A stretch of DNA of 64,000 nucleotides from Minwuia sp. Its GTDB lineage: Bacteria > Pseudomonadota > Alphaproteobacteria > Minwuiales > Minwuiaceae. Shown piece after piece: positions 23,401-41,185 of this stretch (its first letter is position 1; each line of letters opens with the position of its first letter). The position numbers and the translations under genes were made by a program. The notes under the pieces are model-generated. The model did no database searches, had not been told where the DNA came from, and saw nothing but the letters and a program-made list of their open reading frames with translations. The stretch spans positions 14,781 through 78,780 of the forward strand of contig NZ_JBLXDV010000009.1 of NCBI RefSeq assembly GCF_048263705.1. The letters are read 5' to 3'.

Positions 23401-24831
23401 CGCAGCAGTGGCGTTCGTATAATCGACCGTATCCGTATCGGCACCGCCGTCCAGCCGGTCGTTGCCGTCGCCGCTGGCGATCAGGTCATCCCCCGATCCT
23501 GCCGATATGTCCATGCTGCGCCCGATCGCCGAGGCCTCGACGGTATCATTGCCCGCGCCCAGGTCGAGCCTGACCGTGTTCTGGGAAATGTCGGTGTTGG
23601 ACAGGTCCCCGATCGTGACCGTGTCACCGCCCGATCCCAGATTGATCGCGATCGTCTCAACCTCATCGACGATGATATTGGAATCCGTCGGCGCGTCGAA
23701 GTCGAGTACCGCCCGTCCCGCGTCATCGCTGACGAACAGAACCGCCGTTTCATTGACCGGATCAGACTGGATGGTGAGCGTGTCATCGCCCGCGCCGCCC
23801 GTGATCTGAAAATCCCCGTCGGCGATACTGATGGTCAGCGCGCCGTCGAACTGTTCGAAGGTCACATTGTTGTTGCCGTCATCGCCACCGTCATCAAGGA
23901 CCAGTTCCTCATCGTCGTTGTCGCGGACGTCAAAGACATCGTCCCCGTCATCGCTGAGGACATCGTCCGATCCTTCCTCGCCGTCCAGCAGACCCTGCGT
24001 GTCGATCAGCAGGGGCTCGGCCTGCGCCTCGCCGATCCCGAACAGTTCGCTGAGGCGGCCAAAGACGCCCAGATCGTCGGTATCGGCCAGTTCAGCAATG
24101 GCACCGACGTCCGAATAGGCCAGCACACCGTCGCCGAATTCCGACGTCAGGGTGGCGGCATTGACATCGGTCAGCAGGCTGGGATCGCGGAACAGCGACA
24201 CCACCTGCAGGCCCTGCAGGGGCTGGTCGATGATCACCGGCGCGCCTGAACTGGCGACCGCGATGGATCCCGCAAGAGCGCCGGCAATACCGGGCAGCAG
24301 GACGAAGGTATTGGCCTGTGCCTCGGGCGCGGCCTTGCCGATCATGCGCGCGTCCCTGACGGTGACCGATGCCACCGGTGTCCGCACCAGCAATTCGCTG
24401 CCCGGTGCATCGGGACCGCCGGTGCTGTCGACGGAAAACTCGCCCTGGACGACGAAGAACTGTGGCTTGCCGGCCAGGGTCGCCGGTTCCTCGATCAGGA
24501 CCCGGCTTTCGCTGTCGAAAAAGATCGTCGTGCCGTCTGCCGTGGCCAGTTCAAGCGCGCCGTCACCGCGCGTCAGGATCACATCGCCCGGCCCCATTTT
24601 CTGGCCCGGCACTACGGGACCCTGCGTCCCGTCCACCGATATCACCACGACCTCGCCGGAGACGTTGCGGACCGTCACCTGATCGTTCTGGCCCTGCGCG
24701 ACCTGCGCATTCACGACGGTCTCATGCTGCTCGAACACTGCTGCGCCCGAGACCGCTTCGTCCGCACCTTCGGCAGTGCCGGAAAGGGGGCCGGTTCGGC
24801 TCTCACTGGATGATGCTGCAAGCTGGTCCAT
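20428..24831 (-). CDS. large RTX calcium-binding repeat protein (T1SS substrate, adhesin/hemolysin-like)
   Basis: 1467 aa from M9 (the ORF starts at 24855; M9 at 24831 has a good SD AAGGAAG). Dozens of GGxGxDxUx nonapeptides organised in about 55-60-aa higher-order modules (TADFS..VxVDL..G.ATG.G.DTL..IE..IGS..DD.L.G...N.L.GG.G.D). Acidic, Cys-free, no signal peptide. C-terminal 150 aa non-repetitive, consistent with a T1SS signal. Confidence 0.85.
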   Translation of the reverse strand: MDQLAASSSESRTGPLSGTAEGADEAVSGAAVFEQHETVVNAQVAQGQNDQVTVRNVSGEVVVISVDGTQGPVVPGQKMGPGDVILTRGDGALELATADGTTIFFDSESRVLIEEPATLAGKPQFFVVQGEFSVDSTGGPDAPGSELLVRTPVASVTVRDARMIGKAAPEAQANTFVLLPGIAGALAGSIAVASSGAPVIIDQPLQGLQVVSLFRDPSLLTDVNAATLTSEFGDGVLAYSDVGAIAELADTDDLGVFGRLSELFGIGEAQAEPLLIDTQGLLDGEEGSDDVLSDDGDDVFDVRDNDDEELVLDDGGDDGNNNVTFEQFDGALTISIADGDFQITGGAGDDTLTIQSDPVNETAVLFVSDDAGRAVLDFDAPTDSNIIVDEVETIAINLGSGGDTVTIGDLSNTDISQNTVRLDLGAGNDTVEASAIGRSMDISAGSGDDLIASGDGNDRLDGGADTDTVDYTNATAAVDVDLSATSATGFGNDTLTNFENVIGSAFDDTLAGDAGDNRLDGGGGADTADFSGAAAAVNADLFADTATGDGTDTLTAIENLIGSAGDDTLTGDGAANVIAGGLGNDSMDGAAGIDTADYSGSATAVSVDLDTGLATGEGNDTLIGFENATGSAQDDVLAGNASANVLTGNAGDDTLAGAGGADVLAGGDGTDTADFSALVATVTVDLDAGSFSDGTDTGTLSSIENVIGSGANDSITGDANANDLRGSNGADTLAGAGGDDTLQGEVGNDRLSGGAGDDLLDGGAGDDTADFGATTGGVTVDLATGEATGEGTDTLVSIERVEGGSGADSISGDANANTLSGAAGDDTLNGLGGDDRFGYSTGENGNDLIFGGDGAGDNLRLDLLDPSGSNVTISDDGNGDVLVDMIAPLNQSALLDGVEIVSVIGADGDDVLIIDDLSGTEIGNGGIVASLGGGADSLNAADATTAVSVDGGAGNDTLVSGAGADTLAGGDGTDLLDFGNFGGAVTVDLAGGTANSAATGTDQISGFEDVRGGAGADSLTGDAQNNGILGGAGADTISGGAGNDTLLGDAGNDVIDGGAGDDSLLGDAGNDTVSFASAANAVSVDLAEGNATGDGNDTLIGFEAVIGSANDDTLVGSDNDDTLDGGAGNDDIDGGAGTDTASYATSAVAVTASLETGIANSAEGSDFLRNIDNLIGTSRGDSLTGNGEANVLDGGAGGDRLTGGAGDDTLLGNTGGDTLVGGLGDDFFDGGVGTDTADFSASVVAVNVDLTGAQGIASGEGNDTLVAIERILGSNANDTISGAEAAENLQGRSGDDSILGNGGNDTLIGAAGADTLDGGAGDDSLSGGNDNDLLQGGIGNDTLDGESGSDVLTGGDGNDAFFYDTAENHQDVITDFLSGTDRFLIDQTAFGNIAANGSNNLIDGQSFFAVGVSLADGAIDLGNAEASFVFDSDDNLHFDPDGGTTENSFQIATVTDGNLSATDFEVQ

Positions 24832-24920
24832 CGAAACTTCCTTCGCTCGGGGCACTTCATGTGAACGCGTGCCCTGTCATTCAGATGGGAACAGGCATTC
24901 ACAAACGCAAATAGCGGGAC

Positions 24921-24935
24921 GCAAATGGCAGGCCA
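24921..24935 (-). promoter_or_regulatory. candidate sigma-54 (-24/-12) promoter for the RTX gene
   Basis: Minus-strand sequence TGGCCTG-CCAT-TTGCG matches TGGCACG-N4-TTGCW with correct GG/GC spacing. Lies about 90 nt upstream of the RTX ATG at 24831. Confidence 0.45.
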
Positions 24936-24961
24936 TGCCCGTCCTGCGAGCGGGTGCGCGA

Positions 24962-27900
24962 TCAGGCCGCCTGCTCGCCCGCTATAACCCTTAGCCGAGC
25001 CAGTGTCCGGCCCGCAACCGAATGCAGGTCAACAATCGCATCACGTGCATCCTCAAGTTGACCGGAGTCACAGAATGTTTCCACCCGGGCCGCTGTCTCA
25101 GAAAGTGACACCGCGCCGATGGTCCCGGCACTGCTCTTCAGACTGTGGGCGTCGCGTCCCAGATCGCCTGCATTGGCTGCCGTCAGGGGTTCAGACAGCC
25201 GCGCCAGCAGATCAGTCGTATCGTCGATGAAATCCCTGAGCAGGACCGGCAGGTAATCCGCGCCGACGTCTTCGCCGAACTGGTCCATGACGGCCTGATC
25301 GATCAGACCGCCAGTCTGCCCATCGGCTGTCGGTCCATCGCGGCTGACCGGATCCCCGCTCGCTTCTTTCACCGCAACCGGATTCACATCGGCGGGCGGG
25401 CCACCGGTCGCCTTCGCACCGACAAGGGCCCAGCGCGCGACCAGTTGCAGAAGCTCGACCTTGTCGAACGGCTTGGCGATGAAATCGTCCATGCCCTTCG
25501 CGAGGCATTCGTCACGATGTTCGGGCATGGCATTCGCGGTAACGGCCACGATGGGAATCGCCGCTTTCCGGCCGCCCATGGCGCGAATCTTCGCCGTCAC
25601 CTCGAAACCATCCATGTCCGGCATCTGCACATCCATCAGGATGATCTCGAAATCGCCATCCCTGACCGCCGCCACAGCGCTTGCACCGTCTTCCGCCGCA
25701 CTGACCAGATATCCGGCCTTTTCCAGCATGACGCGCGCAACCTGCAGGTTGATCCGGTTGTCGTCCGTGACCAGAACGCGCATGCCGCGCGCCGCCCCAT
25801 CGCCGATCTGTTCCAGGGTCTGGCGCGCCGCCGATTCGACATCGCCGTCCCGGCCCGTCAGCGCCTGGGCCAGCGGCATGCTGCGCACCGGCCGCATGAC
25901 AAATCCATCGAAACCGCGCGCGACCAGATCGTCCGCACGACCGCGCTGCGACGGATCGATCGCCACGATCATCCGGCCATCGACCGACTGACGCAGGGTC
26001 GCGATGTTGGTGGCGCTCGCCGCCTCCGCCATGGTGCCGTCAATCAGCAGGTGATCGATCCGCGCGCCCGGCGGCGTCAGCGTCGGGGAGATATGTCCGA
26101 CCCGGAGCCCGAGCCCGCGCAGGCGCGCCGCCAGCCCTTCGCGCAGGACAGCGTTTTCGGCAAGCACGCCGACCTGCCGACCGTCCAGCATGCCCAGCAG
26201 GCGCTGACGCCCGTCGCTGATCTCGGCGTCCGCCGGCTCAAGCGCGATCTCGAACCAGAACGTGCTGCCCTCGCCTTCGACGCTCTCCAGACCGATCCGG
26301 CCATCCATCAGCCCGATGAGGCGCTTGCAGATGGCCAGCCCCAGCCCGGTGCCGCCGTATTTCCGCGCCGTCGAGGCATCGACCTGGGTGAACTCCTGAA
26401 ACAGGGCACTCTGCCTGTCTTCGGGGATGCCGATCCCCGTGTCGGTGACGTTGAAGCGCAGGACCGGGCGGTCATCGCGGCTGCCGGTCAGCGCGATGTC
26501 GAGCGTGACGCCGCCTTCGTCCGTGAACTTGATCGCGTTACCCGCAAAGTTCAGCAGCACCTGACGGATGCGGGTCGGATCGCCCAGAAAACGGCGGGGC
26601 AGCGCAGGATCGATGATGACCGCGATCTCGACGCCGCGTTCGAACGCCCGCGCGGACAGCAGGTCGGCCACACCGTCGGCGACGTCTTCCAGGTCGAAGG
26701 CCACCGATTCCAGTTCCAGGCGGCCTGCTTCCAGCTTCGAGAAGTCCAGGATGTCATTGATGATGGTCAGCAGCGCCTCGCCGGACTTGCGCACGGTTTC
26801 GGCATACTGGTGCTGCTCGCCGCTCAGCGGTGTTTCCAGCAGCAGGTTGGTCATGCCCAGCACGCCGTTCATCGGTGTGCGGATTTCGTGACTCATCATG
26901 GCCAGGAAGCGGGACTTGGCGACGTTGGCGTCTTCCGCGCGCTCCTTGGCCTCGACCAGCGCGACCTCGTTTTCCTTCTGCGAGGTGATGTCGGTATGGA
27001 CGCTGACGCGGCCGCCCTCGTCGGTGCGGAACTCCCCCACCAGAATCCACCGGCCGTCCGTCATGGCCAGTTCGAACGGCCCGCTGGGATTGCGATGCCG
27101 CTCCAGCCTGTCGGCCACCCAGACCTCGGGATTCGTCTGCGCGCTGACGACGTGGCGCGACGCGGTGCGGCGGAGAACATCCTCGAACTTCTGCCCCTCC
27201 TCGATGCGGCCGGTGGCGCCGCCCGCATAGATATCGGCATATTTCGCGTTGAACAGGATCAGCCGGTCGTCTGAATCATACAGCGCGAACCCGTCGTTCA
27301 TCGCTTCGATGGCTTCCAGCAACTGGGTTCTGGCAGCCGTTGCCCCGGCTTCGGCGATCGCCACCTGCCTGTAGAGCCGGCGCGTCCGCCGGATCTCCCG
27401 GATCAGCAGCACCACCAGCAGCCCGCCCGCCAGCATCGTCGCGATCGAGGACATGAGCAGATTGAAATAGATGGGCCGCAGCCGTTCGGCCCGGAACCGC
27501 GTCACCAGCGACTGCGACGAATCCGTCAGTTCCCTGACGTCATTGAAAACGGGCAGCAACGCGCTGCGGATGCCGCTGTAGGTCCTGAAATCATTCGGCT
27601 GCAGCGCGCGCAGCCGTTCATCATTGGCGTTCAGCGTCGCGGCGAGCCGCAGCGCCAGTTCTCCGGCCCCCAGCGCGTCCTCGTCGTCAGAGCGCATCTT
27701 GTTCAGAAAGATCGGCAGCCGCTGCTTGAGGTAATCGTAGCGCTGCACGAACTCGCGCTGCGTCATCGCCGACGTGCCTGTCACATAAGTGTCCAGCGCT
27801 GAGAGGAACAGCGACAGTTCGTTCTTCGTGTGCGACGCGGCCCAGACCACCGTGTCGTATTCGCCCGAACTGGCGTTATATTCATCCCTGAGCGTCAGAA

Positions 27901-28045
27901 CGGAGTAGACGGTGGTCGACAGCAGCACCAGGATCGCAATCCCCAGCACCGCCAGCCGCCGCTTCGCGCTGCGCCCCATATCAGCAATGCTCAGCCGGGA
28001 AGCGCTGCCCGTTCCGCGTTCTTCGGGTTGAACCTGCATTGTCAT
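24962..28045 (-). CDS. hybrid sensor histidine kinase with periplasmic sensor, PAS, HisKA, HATPase, pseudo-receiver, receiver and C-terminal Hpt domain
   Basis: 1027 aa. TM1 at about residues 30-52 and TM2 at about 195-215, flanking an approximately 140-aa periplasmic region. H-box [12 protein letters not shown]-boxes, REC with [12 protein letters not shown], Hpt with [14 protein letters not shown]. Confidence 0.85.
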
Positions 28046-28162
28046 CGTGATTCTATCATGCGAGAAAGATCATCCGGTGTCGAATTTGTAGACGATAGCC
28101 AGCCCGGAATCAGGCCCTGCAGACCAGCCTGCACATTCACAACCAACGGGACAATGTCATAG

Positions 28163-29623
28163 ATGAGCGGCAGAACGCGCCCTTACATTTTACTGGTTGA
28201 GGATACACCGACCCTCGCACGCAGTTACATCCAGTTTCTGCGCGATGAGCCCTATGAAATCCATCACGTCGAACTGGGCAAGGACGCGCTGCGCTCGTTC
28301 GAGGATCGCCGTCCCGATGCCATTCTGCTGGATCTGCGCCTGCCGGACATGGACGGCATGGACATTCTCCAGCATGTCAGCGAACAGGACGAAGGCGTTC
28401 CGGTCATCGTGATCACCGCGCACGGATCGGTGCAGACGGCGGTCACCGCCATGCGTCTGGGCGCCGCCGATTTCATCGTCAAGCCGTTCTCGGCAGACCG
28501 GCTGAAGGTGACGCTGAAGAATGTGCTTGAGACCAACAAGCTGCGCGAGATCGTCGATACCTACCGCACCGAGATCGACCGCGGCGGCTTCGAGGGCTTC
28601 ATCGGCAGTTCCCTGCCGATGCAGGCGGTCTATCGCATCATCGAGGCGGCAGCATCGTCGAAAGCCACGGTCTTCGTGACCGGCGAGAGCGGAACGGGCA
28701 AGGAGGTCTGCGCGGAAGCGATCAAGAACCGCAGCCCGCGCCGCAAGGGGCCCCTGGTTGCCATCAATTGCGCGGCCATCCCGCACGACCTGATGGAAAG
28801 CGAGATCTTCGGCCACGTGAAGGGGGCCTTCACAGGTGCCCTGGGTGAGCGCGAGGGTGCGGCCCACATGGCCAATGGCGGCACCCTGTTTCTGGACGAA
28901 GTCTGCGAGATGGACCTGGATCTGCAGGCCAAGCTGCTGCGCTTCATCCAGACCGAGACCTTCCGCAAGGTCGGCGGATCAGTGACCGAGAAGGTGGATG
29001 TAAGACTTGTCTGCGCGACCAATCGCGATCCCATGGAAGAGGTGAAGGCCGGGCGGTTCCGCGAAGACCTCTATTACCGTCTGCACGTCATTCCGTTGCA
29101 CCTGCCGCCACTGCGCGACCGCGATGACGACATCCTGAAGATCGCCGACATGTTCCTGCGCAGCTATGCCGAGCGTGAAGGTCGGAAGTTCAGACAGTTC
29201 GAACCGGCCGCCGCCGCCGTGCTGATGTCCTACGACTGGCCGGGCAATGTTCGTGAGCTGCAGAACATCATCCAGAACATCGTCGTTTTGAACGATGGAG
29301 AGACGGTGACGGCGGACATGCTGCCAGGTCCGCTGGCGCAAATCGACCGCTCCGCGATTCCGGCGGCGATGGCGGCGGTTCCGGACACGCAGGCATCATC
29401 CGAGGCGGATGCCCGCGTCCATGGCAAGCCGACGGTTCAGGCCCTTTCCGACGATATCCGGCCCCTTGCCACAGTCGAGCGCGAGTATATCGAACATGCG
29501 ATCAACCGCTGCGACGGGAACGTCCGCACGGCGGCTGCGCTGCTGGGCATCGCCCCGCAGACGATCTATCGCAAGCGCACCGCCTGGGAAGAGGAAGACC
29601 TGGCGTCCAGCGCCGCCGAATAG
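28163..29623 (+). CDS. sigma-54-dependent response regulator, LuxO/NtrC-like (REC + AAA+ sigma-54 + Fis HTH)
   Basis: 486 aa. Receiver with [11 protein letters not shown]. Sigma-54 interaction domain ([29 protein letters not shown]). C-terminal HTH ([20 protein letters not shown]). Divergent from the hybrid HK. Confidence 0.85.
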
Positions 29624-29641
29624 ACCGGCCAACCCGGACCG

Positions 29642-30667
29642 TCAGTACAGGTCCCACTGCCTTTTCATGTAATCAGTAGCCTCGCGGGTGGCGTCCAGTC
29701 CCTGCGGGAGGGACTTGGCCAGCATCATGAAGCCGTGAATCTGGCCGGGATATTCGTGCACGGTCGTGCTGACGCCGGCTTCGGTCAGGCGGTCAGCGTA
29801 ATCTTTCGCCTCGTCACGCAGGGGATCGAATCCCGCGGTCAGGAACAGCGCCGGCGGCTGGCCGGCGAGGTCGGTGTTCCGCCCCGGTGACGCGCGCAAA
29901 TCGTCCTTGTCCGCATCACCGTTCAGATACTGGTTCATGTACCAGTTGATCCGGTCGCGCGGGATGATGGCGCCGTCCTCCAGTTCCGCATGCGAGCGCG
30001 TCGTCGTTGCGAAATCCGTGGCCGGGTAGATCAGAAGCTGAAAATCGGGAGGCGTCTGCCCCGCCGCCGCCGTCTGCTGGCTGACGACGATGGACAGGTT
30101 GCCGCCTGCCGAGTCACCGCCGACGGCGACGCGCGAAGGATCACCGCCGATCTCGCCGGCGTTCTCGCGCAGCCAGCGATAGGCCGCAAGACAGTCGTCC
30201 ACACCGCCGGGAAACTTGTTCTCCGGTGCCAGCCCGTAATCGACGGAGACCACCATCGCACCCGACCACAGAGCCAGGCGCGCGCAGAGCCCATGGTGGC
30301 TGTCCAGATCCCCCTGCACCCATCCGCCGCCGTGGAAGAAGCACAGGACGGGCAGCGGGGCCGCACTGTCGGTCGGCCTGTACACCCGCGCCGGGATCGC
30401 ACCGTTTCGGCCCGCGACCTCGATGTCCCGGATCTCGTGCAGATCGGGTGCCGGTTCGTCCAGCAGTCCGACCAGTGTCAGAAGCTGCTGCCGCAGTTCC
30501 GGCAGGGGCGGGAAATAGCCCGGCACACGGACGGATTTGGAGAACTCGGCGACGACCTGTGCCTTCGGATCCATGACCCTGCGGCCCAGCGTCTCGCGCT
30601 TGCCTTCGAGCAGAGGCAGGACCTCGGCTTCGCTCATCAGGCAATGTTGCAGTTCGAATGCGGTCAT
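29642..30667 (-). CDS. alpha/beta hydrolase fold-3 esterase/lipase (Aes/HSL family)
   Basis: HGGGW oxyanion motif and GDSAGG nucleophile elbow. Start chosen at MTAFELQ (ORF extends to 30925). Confidence 0.75.
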   Translation of the reverse strand: MTAFELQHCLMSEAEVLPLLEGKRETLGRRVMDPKAQVVAEFSKSVRVPGYFPPLPELRQQLLTLVGLLDEPAPDLHEIRDIEVAGRNGAIPARVYRPTDSAAPLPVLCFFHGGGWVQGDLDSHHGLCARLALWSGAMVVSVDYGLAPENKFPGGVDDCLAAYRWLRENAGEIGGDPSRVAVGGDSAGGNLSIVVSQQTAAAGQTPPDFQLLIYPATDFATTTRSHAELEDGAIIPRDRINWYMNQYLNGDADKDDLRASPGRNTDLAGQPPALFLTAGFDPLRDEAKDYADRLTEAGVSTTVHEYPGQIHGFMMLAKSLPQGLDATREATDYMKRQWDLY

Positions 30668-30767
30668 GGTTCGGCGCCCCCGGTCACATGTGCGGAAGCC
30701 CTCCCGGCGGTCCGGAAGGGCTTCCTGAATCAATCCGATCGGTTCCCCGATGGCAGACGGATTTCGA

Positions 30768-31532
30768 TCAGTCGCGGAAGCTGGGGTCCATGCGGTCCAG
30801 CTTGCGCAGCAGGCCCGGCCAGTCGCGGCTGCCCAACGGCGAGAACTTGTCGAACTGCTGGGCGGTATGTTCACAGACTTCCGGCGTCGGCATCTGCAGT
30901 TCCTGACCGCCCGACAGCGCATCAATCTGCAACTGGCAGGACTTCTCCAGATAGGCCAGCAGGCTGAAGGCCTCCGAAACCGACTCGCCCGCTGTCAGCA
31001 GACCGTGGTTGCGCAGGATCATCGCCTTGTGCGTCCCCAGATGGCCGATCAGGCGATCCCGTTCGGAATGGTCCAGCGCCACGCCCTCATACTCGTGGTA
31101 GGCGACGCGATTGTAGAAACGCAGCGAGGTCTGGCTGAGCGGCAGCAGGCCGTTCTTCTGCGCCGAAATCGCCATGCCGGCGCGCGTGTGCGTGTGCGCA
31201 ACCGAGAAGACGTCCGGACGACCGCTCAATACGGCGGAATGAATGGTAAAACCCGCCTGGTTGACGGGATAACCGCCGTCCAGCAACACGTTGTTGTCGT
31301 AGTCGATCTTGACCAGGCTGGACGCCGTGATCTCGTCGAAGAAAAGACCGTGCGGATTCAGCAGGAATGCATCCTCGCCCGGCACGCGGGCCGACAGGTG
31401 GGTCGCCGTCAGATCATCCCAGCCGTAGTGCGCCACCAGACGATAGAAGGCGGCCAGATCGACGCGAACGGCCCATTCCTCGTCGGAGACCTGCTTGCGG
31501 ACGGATTTCACGAGTGGTGCGGTATCGGGCAT
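30768..31532 (-). CDS. class II aldolase/adducin-family protein
   Basis: 254 aa. VAHTHT metal-binding His cluster typical of the class II aldolase/adducin N-terminal domain. Confidence 0.7.
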   Translation of the reverse strand: MPDTAPLVKSVRKQVSDEEWAVRVDLAAFYRLVAHYGWDDLTATHLSARVPGEDAFLLNPHGLFFDEITASSLVKIDYDNNVLLDGGYPVNQAGFTIHSAVLSGRPDVFSVAHTHTRAGMAISAQKNGLLPLSQTSLRFYNRVAYHEYEGVALDHSERDRLIGHLGTHKAMILRNHGLLTAGESVSEAFSLLAYLEKSCQLQIDALSGGQELQMPTPEVCEHTAQQFDKFSPLGSRDWPGLLRKLDRMDPSFRD

Positions 31533-31594
31533 TTGTCTCTCCCCAGAGTTTCAATTCTCTGACCTCTCGCGTCATCCAGTCTGCGCGATCCTCG

Positions 31595-32416
31595 CTAGGA
31601 TTTCGCAAGCGGAAGCGCGATCGCGGCTTCGTCGCCGATCGCACGAAAGGACAATGTCTCCTCAAGATACAACTTTACGTGCCGGGCGTCATGGCTCGAA
31701 TAACCGATGGCAAAGTCGCGTCCGACGTATAGCTCGAAATCGCCGCCGCGACGGGACAGGATCAGCCCGCCCTCGACGGCACGGCTGGGCACGACGGGCC
31801 CGTCGAGCAGATGGCGCGCATGATCCAGCACGCGCCGCCCCGTGTCGGAGACCGCTGCCTGCAGGCGGATGTAGAGGTCCACGGGCAGAACCATGGCGAA
31901 AGGCCCCTGCACGCCCTCAAGGCGCAGCTTTTCCAGCGCTTCGGCGATCGATTCCGGCAGTTTTGCGGGATCGTCGGGCAGATCGCCGGCAGATGAGGCA
32001 ACACTGGTCATGACGCCGTGGATGCCCGCCGCCTCGTAGCCTTGAAAGACCAGGCGATCCTCGGCCAGCGCGATCGTGCGCGCGGCGGCCACCACCGGAT
32101 CGAGGTCCGCGTCTTCCGCGCCGCGGTCGAGATTTTCCAGTTCGTCGATCTCGATTTCGAACGGCACGCGCAGTTCGACCATCGGCAGAACCACGCGCTG
32201 GCGCGCGGAAACATCGTCGGCCAGAGGCTCATCGATCTGCCGCACACGTCCGGTGGCGACAGCGTCGTGGTGATAGCCGAGCGGTCCCTTGAAATCGACC
32301 ACCTGGCGGGCGGCCAGAACGGTCTTCAGGGTCGTGGCGGCGGCCTCTTCGATTTCCGTCCAGGCATTCTTCGAGACGGGTGCCAGCCCGCGTTTCAGGT
32401 CGTCCATGATTTTCAC
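31595..32416 (-). CDS. enc: family 1 encapsulin nanocompartment shell protein (linocin M18-like)
   Basis: 273 aa. N-terminus MKIMDDLKRGLAPVSKNAWTEIEEAAATTLKTVLAARQVVDFKGPLGYHHDAVATGRV follows the HK97-fold family-1 encapsulin pattern as I recall it (no alignment run). A cargo gene lies immediately upstream. Confidence 0.75.
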   Translation of the reverse strand: MKIMDDLKRGLAPVSKNAWTEIEEAAATTLKTVLAARQVVDFKGPLGYHHDAVATGRVRQIDEPLADDVSARQRVVLPMVELRVPFEIEIDELENLDRGAEDADLDPVVAAARTIALAEDRLVFQGYEAAGIHGVMTSVASSAGDLPDDPAKLPESIAEALEKLRLEGVQGPFAMVLPVDLYIRLQAAVSDTGRRVLDHARHLLDGPVVPSRAVEGGLILSRRGGDFELYVGRDFAIGYSSHDARHVKLYLEETLSFRAIGDEAAIALPLAKS

Positions 32417-32417
32417 C

Positions 32418-32783
32418 TCAATCCTTCAGGTCGCGGATGCCGAGATCGCCCTGGTTGCGTCGGGGAGTCGCCCGCAGGACGTCATCGTCGTCACCGTGCT
32501 CGCCGGTGATCGGTCCGTCCTTGAACAGGATGCTCTTCATCTGTTCGTCCAGCCGGGGCATGCGCCGCCGCAGCCATTCCAGCGTCATCACCGCGTGTTC
32601 GATCTCTTCATCCCGATTGTGACCCAGTATGGCCTTCAGGTCGGCGTCGCCGGTGGCGTCGGCGCGCTGCTGGTACCAGTCAACCGCCTCGAATTCCTCC
32701 ATCAGGGAGACGATGGCCCTGTGCAGGTCCAGCGTTTCCTCGGACAGGCGTTCGATCGGCTCATGTAGCCCTTCACTGGCCAT
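32418..32783 (-). CDS. encapsulated ferritin-like protein (EncFtn) cargo with C-terminal targeting peptide
   Basis: 121 aa. ExxH ferroxidase-type motifs (EEFEAVDWYQQRAD, DEEIEHAVMTLEW). C-terminal GDLGIRDLKD resembles the family-1 encapsulin targeting peptide (GSLGIGSLKG-like). Stop sits 1 nt before the encapsulin start. Confidence 0.7.
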   Translation of the reverse strand: MASEGLHEPIERLSEETLDLHRAIVSLMEEFEAVDWYQQRADATGDADLKAILGHNRDEEIEHAVMTLEWLRRRMPRLDEQMKSILFKDGPITGEHGDDDDVLRATPRRNQGDLGIRDLKD

Positions 32784-32920
32784 TCTGATAATCCTTCCCT
32801 GATGCGGTCTGACGACTAGACTGGCTAGATGTGCAATCGGGGCAGGCGTCTCAACCGGTACGAATGTCGCGGCAGATATGCGGCACCGGATATGCTGACG
32901 GAACGGGGAAGCGGCGAAAC

Positions 32921-33910
32921 ATGAAACAGATGCAGTTCACACGATTTGGCGATCCGGCGGACGTTGCGGAGATCATCGAGGTGGATGCACCCGGCGATCC
33001 CGGACCGGGCCGCGTCAATGTCCGTGTTCTGGCCAGTCCGATCAATCCGGCAGACCTGCTGAACATGGAAGGCCGCTACGGTGCCGAACTGCCGCCGCTG
33101 CCGGCGACCCAGGGGGCCGAGGGCGTCGGGCGCATCATCGCGGTCGGCGACGGTGTCGACAACGTCAAGGTCGGCGATCTGGTCACCCCGCCCGCGCGCG
33201 GGCTGTGGCGCGAGATCGTGCAGGGTCCGGCCGCGGGACTTGTCGCCCTGCCGGCCGATGCGGACATTCTCCAGCTGTCCATGCTGCGCGCCAATCCGGC
33301 CTCGGCCTGGCTGATGCTGCGGGACTATGTGACCCTGGAAAGCGGCGATTACGTCATCCAGAACGCGGCCAATTCGGCGGTCGGGCGTCACATCATCCGT
33401 CTCGCGAAATCCCAGGGCTGGAAGACCGTCAACGTGGTCCGGCGTCCCGACCTGATCGACGAACTGACCGGACTGGGCGCGGACCACGTCTTCGTCGACG
33501 GCGAAGACCTGCCGGACCGGGTGGTCGAGGCCACGGGCGGCAATCTGCCCCGGCTGGCCATCGATGCGGTCGGCGGCACCTCGGTCCAGCGTCTGGCAAG
33601 GGCGACTGCCGATGGCGGCACGGTGGTGAACTACGGGCTGCTGTCGGGCGATCCGCTGATGATCGACGCGCGCGAGACCGTCTTCCGCGACCTGACGATC
33701 CGGGGCTTCTGGCTGGCGCCCTGGTTTGCGAAGACCGACCCGCGCGAGATCGGAACCACCTACGCCTTCCTTGGCAAGAAGATGGCGGAAGGGCTGTTGC
33801 ATGTGCCGGTCGAGGCGACCTATCCGCTGGAGCGCGTGAAGGAAGCCGTGGCCCACGCCGGCCGCGACGGCCGCAACGGCAAGGTCATCATCACCATGGA
33901 TGATGTCTGA
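32921..33910 (+). CDS. zinc-independent MDR-family NAD(P)H quinone oxidoreductase / enoyl reductase
   Basis: 329 aa from MKQMQFTRFGDP. Medium-chain reductase fold with Rossmann motif AANSAVGRHIIRLA. Confidence 0.7.
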   Translation: MKQMQFTRFGDPADVAEIIEVDAPGDPGPGRVNVRVLASPINPADLLNMEGRYGAELPPLPATQGAEGVGRIIAVGDGVDNVKVGDLVTPPARGLWREIVQGPAAGLVALPADADILQLSMLRANPASAWLMLRDYVTLESGDYVIQNAANSAVGRHIIRLAKSQGWKTVNVVRRPDLIDELTGLGADHVFVDGEDLPDRVVEATGGNLPRLAIDAVGGTSVQRLARATADGGTVVNYGLLSGDPLMIDARETVFRDLTIRGFWLAPWFAKTDPREIGTTYAFLGKKMAEGLLHVPVEATYPLERVKEAVAHAGRDGRNGKVIITMDDV

Positions 33911-34613
33911 GCGCATGAAAAAGCCGGTCCTGCTCGTGGTGCACCAGAAGCATTCCGATCCCGGCCGGATCGGCATGCGGCTGAGAACGCTGGGTTATCC
34001 GATCGAGATCTGCCGCCATGCCTGCGGCGATCCCCTGCCTGAAAGCATGGACGACTATGCCGGGACCGTGGTCTTCGGCGGTCCGATGAGCGCCAACGAT
34101 GACCATGAACCCTACATCCGCAACGAACTGGACTGGACGCCGGGCGTGATCGAGAGCGGGACGCCGTACCTCGGCGTCTGTCTCGGCGCACAGATCATGG
34201 CGCGGGCCTACGGCGGATCGGTCGCAGAACATCCCGAAGGCCAGGTCGAGATCGGCTATTACAAGATACGCGCGACGCAGGCGGGCGAGGCCTGGTTTCC
34301 CGAGGAAATGTGCATCTTCCAGTGGCACCGCGAGGGGCTGGAACTGCCCGAATGCGCCACCCTGCTGGCGACCAGCGATCACTTCCAGAATCAGGCGCTG
34401 GGCATCGGAGCGAACGGCATCGGCATCCAGTTCCACCCGGAAGTCACGGAGCAGATGAACCGGCGCTGGCTGATCGGCGGTGCCGAGCGGCTGACCCTGC
34501 CCGGCGCACAGCAACCGGACGAACACCACGCGGGCCGCGCAGCACATGATCCGTTCGTCGATGACTGGGTGGACGGTTTCCTGGCGGACTGGCTGAAAAC
34601 CGACCAGCGGTAA
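33900..34613 (+). CDS. class I glutamine amidotransferase (GMP synthase-like) protein
   Basis: 237 aa. Catalytic GVCLGAQ Cys motif and a His/Glu pair near the C-terminus. Confidence 0.7.
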   Translation: MMSERMKKPVLLVVHQKHSDPGRIGMRLRTLGYPIEICRHACGDPLPESMDDYAGTVVFGGPMSANDDHEPYIRNELDWTPGVIESGTPYLGVCLGAQIMARAYGGSVAEHPEGQVEIGYYKIRATQAGEAWFPEEMCIFQWHREGLELPECATLLATSDHFQNQALGIGANGIGIQFHPEVTEQMNRRWLIGGAERLTLPGAQQPDEHHAGRAAHDPFVDDWVDGFLADWLKTDQR

Positions 34614-34638
34614 AACGACCCGGCGACCCTACGGTGCC

Positions 34639-35223
34639 TTACTGTCCGGGGGCGTGCGGCGGGTCGCCGGTCAGCGCGCCGCCAGCCAGGATGAGCTCTT
34701 CCGCCAGCCCGCATTCATCCGGGTGCATCATCCGTTGGTCGCCCTCGACTGACCAATCCTGAACCATAAACTGTTTCTGAATTTCCGGACCAAACCGGCC
34801 CTCAGAAATACGGGTCTGCATGATCGCTTGAGTAGCTGCCTGTGTTGCATTGTACCGATATCCCTCCAGCTCATCATCATATTTCCCACCACCGTACAGG
34901 TAATTAAAATATGTCGCCCCGGTCATATGGATTTCATTTTCTACTATCTCGATGCCCGGCCAGTCTGCCGGAATAATATCTCTATAATACTTCAATACGT
35001 GAAATCTGAATTCCAACGTGTAAATTCCATTGATCGTTTTTAGTCGTCCGTACCGTGGATATAAATCTGGATCTCTTTCATAATTCTTGCACGCGGCCGT
35101 ATAATCGAAAAACGGGTATGTGTAGAATGACCAGTATATAAAATAGATTGCGAGACCCACCGTTCCGGCAAAAACGATACAGATGATTATCTTCCCACCC
35201 CTTTTTCCGAGCGTACTGATCAT
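34639..35223 (-). CDS. hypothetical membrane-anchored protein encoded by a low-GC segment
   Basis: 194 aa. N-terminal TM (IIICIVFAGTVGLAIYFIYWSFYTY), then a Tyr/Asn-rich domain. Codon usage is AT-rich, unlike its neighbours, with GC dropping sharply between about 34790 and 35225. No homology recognised. Confidence 0.55.
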   Translation of the reverse strand: MISTLGKRGGKIIICIVFAGTVGLAIYFIYWSFYTYPFFDYTAACKNYERDPDLYPRYGRLKTINGIYTLEFRFHVLKYYRDIIPADWPGIEIVENEIHMTGATYFNYLYGGGKYDDELEGYRYNATQAATQAIMQTRISEGRFGPEIQKQFMVQDWSVEGDQRMMHPDECGLAEELILAGGALTGDPPHAPGQ

Positions 35224-35515
35224 TCGATCTCCGCCAGATTGTCAGGGATCAGTGTTTCGGGAGTAACGTCACGCCAGTCAAACCAGACGACGTGCCGGTT
35301 CCCGTCATCGGGTTGGCGTCGCATGGCGGTTGTTTCGCTATCTTTCATGGCCGAAATATGACGTCGGCACCCCTAGACGGGCTCCGATGTTCGGGGGCGG
35401 ATCGGTCGCGCAAGATTGCGTCGTCGGAACACTGCTGCTCCATTCGCGCGCTGCCGATGACCGTGCGGCGCTTACCTGAGCGTTTCGTGTTTCTGGCGGG
35501 CGACCGCGATTTTTC

Positions 35516-36979: not shown

Positions 36980-37075
36980 GGCGTCTCGTCTCCCCGGATC
37001 AATTCAGCCAAAGTCTCGGGGATTTCATCACTCGGCGATAGCCCGATTTGCGTTGGGCTGGTATCACCTGCGCCG

Positions 37076-38215
37076 ATGACGACCGCGCTGTTCATACTCT
37101 TTGGCCTCTGTATTGCCGCATGGATCTATCTGATCGTGCTGCGCGGCGGTTACTGGCAGTTGCAGGAGCGCCTGCCCGGTGAGATGAAAACGCCGGAAAC
37201 CTGGCCCACGGTGGCCGTTGTCATTCCCGCACGCAACGAAGCGGACCTGATCGGCGAAACCGTGCGACGCCTGACGGAACAGACCTATCCGGGCGATCTG
37301 CGCCTCATCGTCGTGAACGATCACTCGGAAGACGGCACCGGCGACAAAGCCCGGCAGGCGGGCAATGACCGCACGGTCGTGATCGATGCCGAAGCCCGTC
37401 CGGAAGGCTGGATGGGCAAGGTCTGGGCGATGGAACAGGGTGTGCGCCATCTGCGGGAGATGGGTGCCGAGCCGGATTACATCCTGTTCACGGATGCGGA
37501 CATTCACCATCCGCCAGACAGCGTTTCGCGACTGGTGGCACATGCGGAAGAGGACCGGCGCGATCTGGTCTCGCTGATGGTCAGGCTGAAGGTCGAAACC
37601 TTCTGGGAGCGTCTGCTGATCCCGGTTTTCGTGCTGTTCTTCTCCAAGCTCTATCCCTTCGGCTGGGTCAACGATCCGACGAAGAGCACCGCAGCGGCGG
37701 CAGGCGGCTGCATGCTGGTGCGCAACGAGGTCGTGCAGCGTGCGAACCTGATGGAGGCGATACGCGGCGAGCTGATCGACGACTGTGCGCTGGCGCGGGC
37801 CGTGCGCGACGCCGGGTCTGGCCGCATCTGGCTCGGCCTGACGGAAGATGTGCACAGCGCCCGCGCCTACGGCGGCCTGTCCGGCGTCTGGGACATGGTG
37901 GCCCGCACGGCCTTCACACAGTTGCGCTTCTCCCCGATCCTGCTGCTTGGCAGTGTGGCGGGCATGATCTCTCTCTATCTGTCCTGGATGCTCGCCCTGC
38001 CCTTCGATATCGGCCTGGCAATCGGCTGCTTCGCCCTGCCGATCCTCACCTTCAGTCCGGCCCTGCGCCTTTACGGGCAACCGGCGTGGATGATGGCGCT
38101 GCTGCCGCTCGCGGGACTCATGTACGCCCTGATGACGCTCGACAGCGCGCGGCGGCACTGGACGGGCAGAGGCGGAAACTGGAAGGGTCGCTATCAGGCG
38201 AAGATCGCGAAATGA
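37076..38215 (+). CDS. hpnB: hopanoid-associated GT2 glycosyltransferase HpnB-like
   Basis: 379 aa from MTTALFILFGL. GT-A fold (VVIPARNEADLI ... DAD ... ) with C-terminal TM helices. Sits immediately upstream of hpnCDE and overlaps hpnC by 4 nt. Confidence 0.65.
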   Translation: MTTALFILFGLCIAAWIYLIVLRGGYWQLQERLPGEMKTPETWPTVAVVIPARNEADLIGETVRRLTEQTYPGDLRLIVVNDHSEDGTGDKARQAGNDRTVVIDAEARPEGWMGKVWAMEQGVRHLREMGAEPDYILFTDADIHHPPDSVSRLVAHAEEDRRDLVSLMVRLKVETFWERLLIPVFVLFFSKLYPFGWVNDPTKSTAAAAGGCMLVRNEVVQRANLMEAIRGELIDDCALARAVRDAGSGRIWLGLTEDVHSARAYGGLSGVWDMVARTAFTQLRFSPILLLGSVAGMISLYLSWMLALPFDIGLAIGCFALPILTFSPALRLYGQPAWMMALLPLAGLMYALMTLDSARRHWTGRGGNWKGRYQAKIAK

Positions 38216-39069
38216 GCCCCGGCACCGGCCAGATCGAGACCGCCTCGGGCAAGGGCGCGAAGGACGAGAACTTTCCCGTCGGGTCGTTCCTGCTGCCGAA
38301 ACGCCTGCGCCCGCATGTGGCCTGTTTCTACGCCTTCGCGCGGGCCGGTGACGACATCGCCGACAACCCCGACCTGAGCCCGGAGGAGAAGCTCGACAGG
38401 CTGCAGGCGTTCGACGACGCACTGGTCAACGGGTCGTCCGATCCGGCGCTCGCCAAACCTGACCGCCTGCGCGACAGTCTGCGCCAGACGAACGTCACGG
38501 ACCGCCATGCGCGCGACCTGCTGCGGGCTTTCATGCAGGACGCGGTGAAGACGCGCTACGACAGTTGGGACGATCTGATGGGGTACTGCCGCCTTTCCGC
38601 GTCGCCCGTGGGGCGCTATCTGCTGGACCTGCACGGCGAGGACCCGGCGGACTACGCCGTGTCCGATCCGCTGTGCGATGCGCTGCAGGTCATCAATCAC
38701 CTGCAGGACTGCCAGGAGGACTATCGCGACATGGACCGGGTGTATCTGCCGCAGGAGTGGCTGAAGGCCCGGGGCATCGACGAAACGGCGCTGAACGCAG
38801 ATTCCGCATCGCCGGCGCTGCGCGCGGTTCTGGATCAGTGCCTCGATGGCTGCGAGAACCTGATGATCAGGGCTCGCAAGATGCCGAAAAAGCTGCAATC
38901 AAGACATCTGGGTGCCGAATCTGCCGTGATCGTCGCTCTGGCGGATGCGCTGATGGAACAATTGCGGCGGCGCGATCCGCTGGCCGAACGCGTGGCATTC
39001 GGCAAACCGCGCATGGCGATGATCGCCGCCGGTGCGCTGGGACGCTTCTATCTGGGAGGACGTGCGTGA
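38212..39069 (+). CDS. hpnC: hydroxysqualene synthase HpnC (squalene/phytoene synthase family)
   Basis: 285 aa. ENFPVGSFLLP ... YAFARAGDDIADN Asp-rich motif. Followed by hpnD and hpnE. Confidence 0.8.
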   Translation: MSPGTGQIETASGKGAKDENFPVGSFLLPKRLRPHVACFYAFARAGDDIADNPDLSPEEKLDRLQAFDDALVNGSSDPALAKPDRLRDSLRQTNVTDRHARDLLRAFMQDAVKTRYDSWDDLMGYCRLSASPVGRYLLDLHGEDPADYAVSDPLCDALQVINHLQDCQEDYRDMDRVYLPQEWLKARGIDETALNADSASPALRAVLDQCLDGCENLMIRARKMPKKLQSRHLGAESAVIVALADALMEQLRRRDPLAERVAFGKPRMAMIAAGALGRFYLGGRA

Positions 39070-39917
39070 ACGCCGAACTGGAGAAGGCGCACGACCATGT
39101 GCGCCGCATCGTTGAAAAGTCGGGCACCTCGTTCGGGCTGGGCATGAAGATCCTGCCGGAGGATGGGCGCAGAGCCATGTACGGCGTCTATGCCTTCTGC
39201 CGGGAGATCGACGACATCGCCGACGAGCCCGGGACCGAACAGGCCAAGCGCGACGGGCTGGACAAATGGCGCAAGGAGGTCGAGCGGCTGTACCAGGGTC
39301 AGCCGGAAGATCTCACCATGGTGGCACTGCTGCCCGCCGTTGAAGCCTATGACCTGCCGAAACAGGAGTTTATCGAGCTGATCGACGGCATGGTGATGGA
39401 CGTCGACCTCGACTTCGGACGTGCCGAGCGTCTGGACCACAGCGGGCTTCACCTCTATTGCCGACGGGTCGCTGGCGCGGTGGGCATGCTGTCCATCCGC
39501 ATCTTCGGCGAACCTGATGCGACGCAGTTCGCGCTGGCCATGGGCGATGCGCTGCAACTGACCAACATCCTGCGCGACATCGGCGAGGATGCCGACGAGG
39601 GCCGCATCTATCTGCCCATCGACATGATCCGCGCCGAGGGGATCACAGCGACCGATCCGAAAGAAATCGTCCGTGACCCGCGCCTGACCGCCGTGTGCGA
39701 CCGGATCGCCGAGGAAGCCGACGCCCGCTTCCGAGACGCCGAGGAGCAGTCACGCCGCCATGACCGCCGGAAGCTGAAGCCCGCGCTGGTCATGGGATCG
39801 ATTTATCGCGGCTATCTGGACAAGCTGCTGGCGCGCGGCTTCGCCGACCCGACCGCGACGGTGAAGATGTCGAAAGCCGCGAAAGCCACCCGCGCCCTGC
39901 GCGCGATGATGGGCTGA
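39066..39917 (+). CDS. hpnD: presqualene diphosphate synthase HpnD
   Basis: GTG start overlapping the hpnC stop by 4 nt, with SD GGAGGA. YAFCREIDDIADE and second Asp-rich motif NILRDIGEDADEGRIYLP. Confidence 0.8.
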   Translation: MNAELEKAHDHVRRIVEKSGTSFGLGMKILPEDGRRAMYGVYAFCREIDDIADEPGTEQAKRDGLDKWRKEVERLYQGQPEDLTMVALLPAVEAYDLPKQEFIELIDGMVMDVDLDFGRAERLDHSGLHLYCRRVAGAVGMLSIRIFGEPDATQFALAMGDALQLTNILRDIGEDADEGRIYLPIDMIRAEGITATDPKEIVRDPRLTAVCDRIAEEADARFRDAEEQSRRHDRRKLKPALVMGSIYRGYLDKLLARGFADPTATVKMSKAAKATRALRAMMG

Positions 39918-39922
39918 CCGGT

Positions 39923-41185
39923 TTGGCGGGCACTGTCCATGTTCTCGGCGCCGGTCTCGCCGGACTTGCGGCAGCGCTGACGCTTTCGGCTGAAGGCCGC
40001 AAGGTCATCGTCCACGAAGCGGCCAACAAGGCAGGCGGGCGCTGCCGCAGCTACCATGATCCCTTGCTGAACCGCGTCATCGACAATGGCAACCACCTGA
40101 TGATGAGCGCCAACGATCACGTCTTTGCCTGGCTGGACGATATCGGCGCGCGCAGCCGCGTGGCGGTCACCGATCCGGCGGCCTACCCCTTCGTCAATGT
40201 CGAAACGGGCGAGCGCTGGACCGTGAGGCCCAATCGCGGCCCGATCCCGTGGTGGATTTTCGTGCCCTCGCGGCGTGTGAGGGGTGCACGGATCCGGGAT
40301 TTTCTGGAAGGCATCCGGTTGCTGAGGGCCGACCCTGAGAAGACCGTGGCCGATTGCCTGTCGCAGGACACGATGCTGTGGCGGCGTTTCTGGGAACCGC
40401 TAACGGTGGGCGCGCTGAACTGCGCGCCACACGAAGGGGCCGCCGCGCTGCTGGCGGAAGTCCATCGCCGGACCTTTGCCAAGGGCGAGGCCTTCTCGCG
40501 GCCCGTGTTCGTGAAGGAGAGCCTGGCCGACGCGCTGATCGACCCGGCCATCGCCCTGCTGGAACGCCGGGGCGTACAGGTCCGCCTGCGCAGCCGGGTG
40601 CGCGCGCTGCAATACGACAGCGACAGGCTGAACGGTTTCGCGACAACGCGTGAGGAAATCGTCCTTCACACCGATGACAGGGTGATCATGGCGCTGCCTT
40701 CGTGGGTGGCTGCGGAACTGATGCCCGAGATCGGGCCGCCGTCGGGCGCGCGGATGATCCTGAACCTGCACTTCCTGCTGGATGGAAAGCCGGACCTGCC
40801 GCCGGTCACCGGCCTGACGGGCAGCATTGCGCAATGGCTGTTCATCAAGGGTGAAGTCGCGTCCGTGACCGTCAGCGCGGCGGATCCGTTCGCCGAGACA
40901 CCAGCCGACGACATCTCGGCCCGGATCTGGCCGGAGATCGCCGTCGCGCTGGGTACGCCCGGGGCACCGCAACCGCCCTGCCGTGTGGTGAAGGAGAAGC
41001 GCGCGACTTTTCTGCAGACCCCCGCCAACGAGAAGCGCCGCCCCGGTGCGGTGACGCACTGGTCGAACCTTTTTCTGGCCGGGGACTGGACGGATACGGG
41101 CCTGCCCGCCACCATCGAAGGCGCACTGCAGTCGGGACGGACGGCAGCCGCCTCCGCTATGGCCCAGTCGGGAGGACCGTCATGA
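39923..41185 (+). CDS. hpnE: hydroxysqualene dehydroxylase HpnE (FAD amine-oxidase family)
   Basis: 420 aa. N-terminal dinucleotide fold VHVLGAGLAGLAAALTLSAEGRKVIVHEA. Confidence 0.8.
   Translation: MAGTVHVLGAGLAGLAAALTLSAEGRKVIVHEAANKAGGRCRSYHDPLLNRVIDNGNHLMMSANDHVFAWLDDIGARSRVAVTDPAAYPFVNVETGERWTVRPNRGPIPWWIFVPSRRVRGARIRDFLEGIRLLRADPEKTVADCLSQDTMLWRRFWEPLTVGALNCAPHEGAAALLAEVHRRTFAKGEAFSRPVFVKESLADALIDPAIALLERRGVQVRLRSRVRALQYDSDRLNGFATTREEIVLHTDDRVIMALPSWVAAELMPEIGPPSGARMILNLHFLLDGKPDLPPVTGLTGSIAQWLFIKGEVASVTVSAADPFAETPADDISARIWPEIAVALGTPGAPQPPCRVVKEKRATFLQTPANEKRRPGAVTHWSNLFLAGDWTDTGLPATIEGALQSGRTAAASAMAQSGGPS

Follow-up and report, generated by a model that had tools for sequence, protein, structure and literature searches.

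Among systems with solved structures, the EncFtn-encapsulin pair of R. rubrum (Rru_A0973/Rru_A0974; cargo, PDB 5DA5; shell, PDB 9RY4 and related entries) is the closest to the locus described here. The R. rubrum shell forms 24-nm compartments, as seen by electron microscopy (PMC5012862). In its cargo protein, two chains contribute Glu32, Glu62, His65 and Tyr39 to the di-iron ferroxidase center, which forms across a dimer interface (He et al. 2016, PMC5012862). Glu31 and Glu34 make up a metal entry site, and His57, Glu61 and Glu64 have been proposed as exit residues (PMC5012862). EncFtn alone cannot mineralize iron, but the loaded compartment takes up more than 4100 Fe per particle (PMC5012862). 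In H. ochraceum (PDB 7OE2, 7ODW, 5N5F), an EncFtn decamer is again the cargo within a T=1 shell, and this is the only system for which pore dynamics and asymmetric loading are known. In T. maritima (PDB 3DKT, 7KQ5), the Family 1 shell is T=1 and the cargo is likewise ferritin-like. The M. xanthus EncA/B/C/D (T=3) and Q. thermotolerans IMEF (T=4) systems follow the same logic, with a ferritin-like ferroxidase cargo inside an iron-mineralizing HK97-fold shell, but differ in their larger shells, in having several cargo proteins and in the way the targeting peptide is bound.

Cargo loading in these systems involves short peptides. The consensus for Family 1 targeting peptides is SDGSLGIGSLKRS (PMC8346489), the T1 consensus peptide reads DGSLGIGSLKG, and the native T. 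maritima peptide is NTGGDLGIRK (PMC7925596). The LGI triplet supplies two hydrophobic anchors and the C-terminal lysine an ionic contact (PMC7925596).

Here we analyze a locus in a stretch of 64,000 nucleotides from Minwuia sp. (hereafter, the window). We conclude that it is very probably a two-gene Family 1 encapsulin operon of the EncFtn type, located on the Minwuia sp. chromosome.

Results

Gene layout and translation starts

The preliminary description had placed a 121-aa ferritin-like gene directly upstream of a shell gene, and the minus-strand open reading frames bear this out. The features of the two genes and of the region preceding them are as follows:

32784..32920, no strand assigned: divergent intergenic region of 137 nt between the EncFtn gene (minus) and a zinc-type alcohol dehydrogenase-like gene (plus)
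32792..32797, minus strand: Shine-Dalgarno-like GAAGGA of the EncFtn gene, 8 nt ahead of the EncFtn ATG, read from the sequence
32418..32783, minus strand: EncFtn (cargo) coding sequence, ATG start, 121 aa, stop codon included
32595..32699, minus strand: codons for E29, E30, E32, W36, Y37, H55, E59, E60 and H63 of EncFtn, metal sites
32421..32450, minus strand: predicted C-terminal targeting peptide GDLGIRDLKD, EncFtn residues 112-121, from motif comparison
32414..32419, minus strand: Shine-Dalgarno GAGGTG of the shell gene, overlapping the EncFtn stop codon, 6 nt ahead of the ATG at 32407
31595..32407, minus strand: Family 1 encapsulin shell coding sequence, 270 aa from its most likely start, an ATG

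The cargo reading frame terminates in ...NQGDLGIRDLKD. The first possible start of the shell gene is a GTG at 32416, which yields a 273-aa protein (31595..32416) starting 1 nt past the cargo stop codon. A shell of this length and spacing had been described for the locus; it is correct as read from the GTG, but a start at ATG 32407 is likelier. Shell homologues and solved structures all align from residue 4 (MDDLKR...) of the GTG-start reading, the GAGGTG Shine-Dalgarno is placed for the ATG, and the RefSeq protein identical to the shell gene product (WP_417518125.1, Minwuia sp., "family 1 encapsulin nanocompartment shell protein") corresponds to the 270-aa reading from the ATG. For these reasons the shell gene most likely starts at ATG 32407 and encodes 270 aa, and the spacer between cargo and shell gene is thus 10 nt. 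This spacing, together with a Shine-Dalgarno that overlaps the upstream stop codon, suggests translational coupling of the two genes.

To place the locus among its relatives, we compared 28 loci in which an EncFtn gene adjoins a shell gene: 24 of 80 Family 1 loci from a species-representative genome scan, in which EncFtn was found by tblastn, and four loci of the Minwuia lineage. The distance from the EncFtn stop to the shell start ranges from -20 to +20 nt in this set.

The cargo protein

By its profile matches, the small upstream protein is an EncFtn, as the preliminary description had it. It matches Pfam PF22277 (EncFtn-like) with an E-value of 2.9e-41 and 139.6 bits (cut-off 27), and NCBIfam TIGR04535 (encapsulin-associated ferritin-like protein) with 137.7 bits (cut-off 125) over positions 1-114 of 114; its di-iron residues are intact. 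Against NF058679, the model of the EncB family, it scores 68.4 bits, below the cut-off of 90, and we therefore do not regard it as an EncB-type cargo. The best matches in the PDB are R. rubrum EncFtn (5da5, E 1.8e-34) and H. ochraceum EncFtn (7oe2, E 1.9e-34), both aligning over the full length and the latter including the targeting peptide. An identical RefSeq entry from Minwuia sp., WP_417518127.1, is named "encapsulin-associated ferritin-like protein."

We next mapped the metal sites of R. rubrum EncFtn onto the window protein. Residues E29, E30, E32, W36, Y37, H55, E59, E60 and H63 correspond to R. rubrum E31, E32, E34, W38, Y39, H57, E61, E62 and H65, respectively, and a further glutamate, E62, is found at the position equivalent to R. 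rubrum Glu64. The ferroxidase center (R. rubrum E32/E62/H65/Y39) and the entry site (E31/E34/W38) thus have their counterparts in the window; Trp38 is grouped with the R. rubrum entry-site residues, and its counterpart W36 is present. We aligned 31 EncFtn sequences, namely those of the window, R. rubrum and H. ochraceum and the 28 from loci adjoining shell genes. The nine metal-site positions, E62 not being among them, are invariant in all 31 sequences, with the exception of one glutamine in the E32 column. Di-iron motifs of the ExxH type had been noted in this cargo in the plural. The di-iron residues are indeed intact, but each EncFtn monomer contains a single ExxH (E60-I-E-H63), and E30 and Y37 complete the site.

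The C-terminus of EncFtn, which in longer form reads ...RATPRRNQGDLGIRDLKD, fits the pattern of Family 1 targeting peptides. It shares the exact core GDLGIR with the T. maritima peptide and continues with DLK, as in the consensus. Because a T. maritima core is here joined to DLKD, similar to the proteobacterial consensus (...SLK...), the window peptide appears to be a hybrid of the two forms; the corresponding stretch in R. rubrum is GSLGIGSLK, compared with GDLGIRDLK in the window. All 28 EncFtn genes adjoining shell genes carry an LGI-type motif located 1-20 residues from the C-terminus. Most of these motifs follow G[SD]LGI[GR][SD]L[RK], with a few substitutions (e.g. LAIG, LSIG, LNIG, GDLGIRGN). 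The earlier assignment of GDLGIRDLKD as a targeting peptide hence agrees with 28 orthologous operons as well as with the published peptides, and by this comparison the EncFtn C-terminus is a Family 1 targeting peptide. A six-frame regular-expression scan of the 64-kb window with the pattern [SDGT]L[GSAN]I[GR].L returned one match, the EncFtn C-terminus. From this single match we conclude that the window holds no second cargo, and the result is in line with the original observation that the downstream aldolase and esterase genes lack targeting peptides.

The shell protein

The larger protein is, on its profile matches, a Family 1 (classical) encapsulin shell. It matches Pfam PF04454 (Linocin_M18) with an E-value of 8.9e-82 and 274.6 bits (cut-off 24.3) over profile positions 1-252 of 253, and the NCBIfam equivalog NF041155 (encap_f1) with 289.6 bits (cut-off 100) over positions 1-261 of 261. 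The comparison with PF04454 and with the EncFtn family that had been proposed as a check thus places both proteins well above the cut-offs, with matches that chance could not account for. In the PDB, the R. rubrum shell (9ry4, E 6.9e-76) matches best, aligning over the full length, and next come the T=1 shells of M. tuberculosis, K. pneumoniae, M. hassiacum, B. linens, H. ochraceum (E 2.1e-56) and T. maritima. For the T=3 shell of M. xanthus (EncA) and the T=4 shell of Q. thermotolerans, the E-values are just 1e-13 to 1e-10, and M. xanthus EncC is found at E 8.5e-07; these systems are far more distant from the window than the T=1 systems.

We calculated an AlphaFold2 model of the shell protein from a 23-sequence alignment (mean pLDDT 86.3, pTM 0.83), in which a loop comprising residues 41-51 is the single region of low confidence. 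A Foldseek search of the PDB with this model listed 50 matches, all of them encapsulins, with TM values of 0.84-0.85 for the M. tuberculosis, Arthrobacter, H. ochraceum and K. pneumoniae encapsulins. The HK97-fold encapsulin shell proposed at the outset is therefore supported by the NF041155 and PF04454 matches and by a predicted fold that superposes on solved T=1 encapsulins. At 270 aa, the protein has the compact size of Family 1 shells (about 265-280 aa expected) along with the predicted HK97-type fold. There are 55 invariant positions in the 23 aligned shells, including the N-terminal L4, R6, A9, P10, W16 and I19, all of which the window protein keeps by definition, as it is one of the 23 sequences. 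Based on its length and on its closest solved relatives, all of which are T=1, the shell would most likely assemble as a T=1 icosahedron with 60 subunits and a size of about 24 nm.

The locus shares with R. rubrum the order of cargo followed by shell, the size of EncFtn (about 120-140 aa) and of the shell (about 270 aa), and a C-terminal peptide of the LGI type. Cargo and shell are about 54% and about 51% identical, respectively, to their R. rubrum counterparts. The window differs in that its linker between ferritin domain and peptide is shorter, and in that its shell is missing a 5-residue insertion present at about residue 65 of the R. rubrum shell. The corresponding identities to H. ochraceum are about 53% (cargo) and about 41% (shell). 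The T. maritima shell is about 32% identical, while the peptide core GDLGIR is common to both systems.

Genomic neighborhood

Phage capsid genes are known to contaminate searches for Family 1 shells (PMC8346489), and encapsulins and phage capsids have a common fold. One could thus read the shell gene as a degenerate HK97-type major capsid gene of a prophage preceded by an unrelated ferritin-like open reading frame, in which case there would be no nanocompartment. The surroundings of the locus do not resemble a prophage. On one side, two genes divergent from the operon, one for the zinc-type alcohol dehydrogenase-like protein and one for a class I glutamine amidotransferase (GATase), are followed by genes for an amidase, a GT2 glycosyltransferase, squalene/phytoene synthase-family (SQS) proteins and an amine oxidase. 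The opposite side carries a class II aldolase gene and an Abhydrolase_3/LipP1-like esterase gene, along with genes encoding an NtrC-type sigma-54 activator, a hybrid histidine kinase and an RTX-repeat protein of 1475 aa. Pfam assigns metabolic or regulatory functions to the about 16 surrounding genes, and we found no portal, terminase, protease, integrase or tail genes among them. Neither the cargo, the shell nor a low-GC open reading frame matches PHROGs at E <= 0.01. The GC content of the locus (0.60-0.66) is like that of its surroundings (window mean 0.64). Scans of the window with Rfam models and for tRNAs returned no hits.

The upstream gene, in addition, bears a predicted shell-docking peptide, and the best structural matches of the shell are all encapsulins. 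In view of the equivalog score, the neighboring genes, the Foldseek matches and the PHROGs search, we rejected a prophage capsid as vanishingly improbable and retain a Family 1 encapsulin operon.

Contig look-ups with the exact EncFtn and shell sequences gave no match, and we took the genomic context from relatives with 61-69% identity and from the genome scan. Three metagenome contigs and a complete Minwuia genome, CP180352, share with the window the gene block SQS - GT - amidase - GATase - ADH / EncFtn - Enc - aldolase (GT, glycosyltransferase; ADH, alcohol dehydrogenase-like; Enc, encapsulin shell). Identities to these Minwuia-lineage relatives are 70-77% for EncFtn, 61-69% for the shell and 83-86% for the aldolase. 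In the relatives, the block continues with TMP-TENI, EF-P, inositol monophosphatase and OmpA genes, and at least five genes on each side keep their order among them; the synteny of the window with the relatives stops after the aldolase gene.

The region upstream of the operon

By alignment to a Minwuia orthologue, the true start of the divergent alcohol dehydrogenase-like gene is at 32921 on the plus strand, and the promoter of the operon presumably lies within the resulting intergenic region, 32784..32920. No sigma-70-like promoter was found in a promoter and terminator scan of 30600..33100, in which the only terminator-like site is on the wrong strand within the shell gene. Three related loci show little conservation in the upstream region, and its alignment with two relatives revealed no conserved operator or promoter block. 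An iron- or peroxide-responsive operator was not found by either approach, i.e. in the scan of 30600..33100 or in the alignment of the upstream region. By eye, we noted a CTAG-N5-CTAG element and a GCATATC direct repeat in the window, neither of which is conserved.

The promoter result and the poor upstream conservation could be taken to mean that the genes are intact but silent or decaying, a remnant that is not expressed or does not assemble in its host. Faster divergence would point the same way, as shell and cargo are 61-78% identical among Minwuia-lineage genomes, compared with 74-86% for flanking genes. Yet both open reading frames are full length with neither frameshift nor premature stop, the catalytic residues and the targeting peptide are all kept, as are the invariant shell positions (the latter by definition, see above), and both genes have good ribosome-binding sites. 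Their GC3 and codon-position GC resemble those of neighboring genes, and the operon has been kept in at least three diverged relatives. We consider such a remnant highly improbable. We thus rejected a pseudogene reading on the basis of the full-length reading frames, the retained residues and peptide, codon-position GC, ribosome-binding sites and retention in relatives, and prefer that of an intact EncFtn-encapsulin operon.

Genes downstream of the shell

Downstream of the shell gene, the following features were located:

31533..31594: gap between shell and aldolase genes, 62 nt
30768..31532, minus strand: class II aldolase/adducin-family gene (PF00596, E 7.5e-47; NF005451, 339.6 bits)
about 29642..30667, co-oriented: esterase gene, likely start MTAFELQ, 100 nt past the aldolase stop

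The esterase open reading frame as listed (427 aa) overlaps the aldolase gene, and the protein most likely starts at MTAFELQ (about 30667). The esterase gene is not conserved at this position, even within the Minwuia lineage. For the gap between the shell and aldolase genes, the preliminary description gave 63 nt, which we correct to 62 nt. A terminator scan and folding of this gap (z = -1.2) revealed no terminator-like hairpin. As the spacer has no such structure, the aldolase gene may be co-transcribed with the encapsulin genes.

This raises the question of whether the operon forms part of a larger unit, in which a co-transcribed aldolase would act as a lineage-specific accessory of the nanocompartment and would not be encapsulated by means of a canonical targeting peptide. 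Besides being co-oriented and separated by a hairpin-free gap, the aldolase gene directly follows that of the shell in each of the four Minwuia-lineage loci, with gaps of 32-33 nt. The break in synteny directly past the aldolase gene implies that it stayed with the encapsulin genes, and other Family 1 operons contain untargeted accessory genes of unknown role (PMC8346489). However, none of the 80 other Family 1 loci, 24 of which have an EncFtn cargo, has the aldolase gene within 5 kb of its shell gene. Since at least five genes per side are conserved in the relatives, its adjacency may reflect mere synteny within the lineage. The aldolase lacks a targeting peptide and has its own GGGGAGAGA ribosome-binding site, and its conservation (83-86%, compared with 61-69% for the shell) points to an independent housekeeping constraint.

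Taken together, we find an accessory role of this kind unlikely. The more specific proposal that, in the Minwuia lineage, EncFtn, encapsulin and the PRK07044-type class II aldolase/adducin-family enzyme constitute a three-gene transcription unit is, in our estimate, decidedly improbable. Were it true, a metal-dependent aldolase-fold enzyme would be functionally tied to an iron nanocompartment, be it by metal supply, by shared stress regulation or in some other way; to our knowledge, an accessory gene of this aldolase type has not been described for EncFtn systems. Given its absence from the 80 non-Minwuia loci, its own ribosome-binding site and the long syntenic block, we instead regard the aldolase gene as a lineage-specific neighbor, rather than as a demonstrated part of the system, and the operon as one of two genes.

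Discussion

The characterized systems of R. rubrum, H. ochraceum and T. maritima, from which we infer assembly, T number, docking, ferroxidase activity and mineralization, suggest how the two-gene operon may function; the characterized systems behind this functional comparison are about 50% identical to the window proteins. The 270-aa shell protein with its HK97-type fold would self-assemble, most likely into the 60-subunit T=1 icosahedron of about 24 nm discussed above. EncFtn would form metal-dependent dimers and probably decamers, with a di-iron center contributed by E30, E60, H63 and Y37 of two chains. By analogy, it would thus be a metal-dependent annular decamer that has ferroxidase activity but does not itself store mineral. 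A flexible linker of about 20 residues would then allow GDLGIRDLKD to dock in a hydrophobic pocket on the inner face of the shell. Fe(II) could enter through pores in the shell and be oxidized by EncFtn at the di-iron sites in the dimer interface, and the Fe(III) produced may mineralize in the shell lumen, providing iron storage and protection from Fenton chemistry.

The locus is a standard member of the well-characterized and already known EncFtn-encapsulin system. As automated annotation already names both genes correctly, it does not challenge the current understanding of these compartments, and its import beyond correct annotation is small: it adds one further alphaproteobacterial (Minwuia) EncFtn-encapsulin compartment with a likely role in iron oxidation and storage. 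The GDLGIRDLKD peptide, in which a T. maritima core is followed by a proteobacterial consensus tail, could be a minor data point for the engineering of peptide-shell interactions.

Gene neighborhood and divergence of the encapsulin block

We compared the surroundings of the encapsulin block with those in Minwuia relatives. The common gene order ends directly after the class II aldolase/adducin-family gene, where the relatives continue with thiamine-phosphate synthase-like, EF-P, inositol monophosphatase and OmpA genes. The window differs here (20428-30667) and carries the following genes instead:

Abhydrolase_3/LipP1-like esterase
NtrC-type sigma-54 activator
PAS/HisKA/REC/Hpt hybrid kinase
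1475-aa RTX-repeat protein with a FecR domain at its N-terminus

A cluster at 37073-41185, which adjoins the encapsulin block in the relatives as well, contains a GT2 glycosyltransferase, a flavin amine oxidase and two further ORFs:

38233..39063, squalene/phytoene-synthase family ORF
39129..39647, second ORF of this family, a weaker paralogue

The cluster presumably resembles the hpnB/C/D/E genes of hopanoid or squalene biosynthesis.

GC content drops to 0.43-0.49 in an island at 34600-35500 (0.64 for the whole window), in which we located one small ORF:

34639..35223, minus strand, 194-aa ORF with a hydrophobic N-terminus

Pfam and PHROG searches returned no match for this ORF, which corresponds to RefSeq WP_417518133.1, named 'hypothetical protein'. 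It is flanked by class I glutamine amidotransferase (GATase) and amidase genes, and it looks like a recent insertion, because the gap between these two genes is just 9 nt in L001, a related Minwuia genome.

The intergenic DNA upstream of EncFtn (32800-32900), read on the strand of that gene, contains the element CTAG-N5-CTAG (CTAGCCAGTCTAG) as well as GCATATC-N9-GCATATC, a short direct repeat. An alignment with two related loci shows that neither is conserved.

Within the Minwuia lineage, the shell and EncFtn diverge faster than the flanking zinc-type alcohol dehydrogenase-like, GATase and aldolase genes. Compared with four Minwuia-lineage loci (L001-L004), the window's block (31595-32783) shares 61-69% identity in the shell and 70-77% in EncFtn; the flanking genes share 74-86% among Minwuia-lineage genomes.
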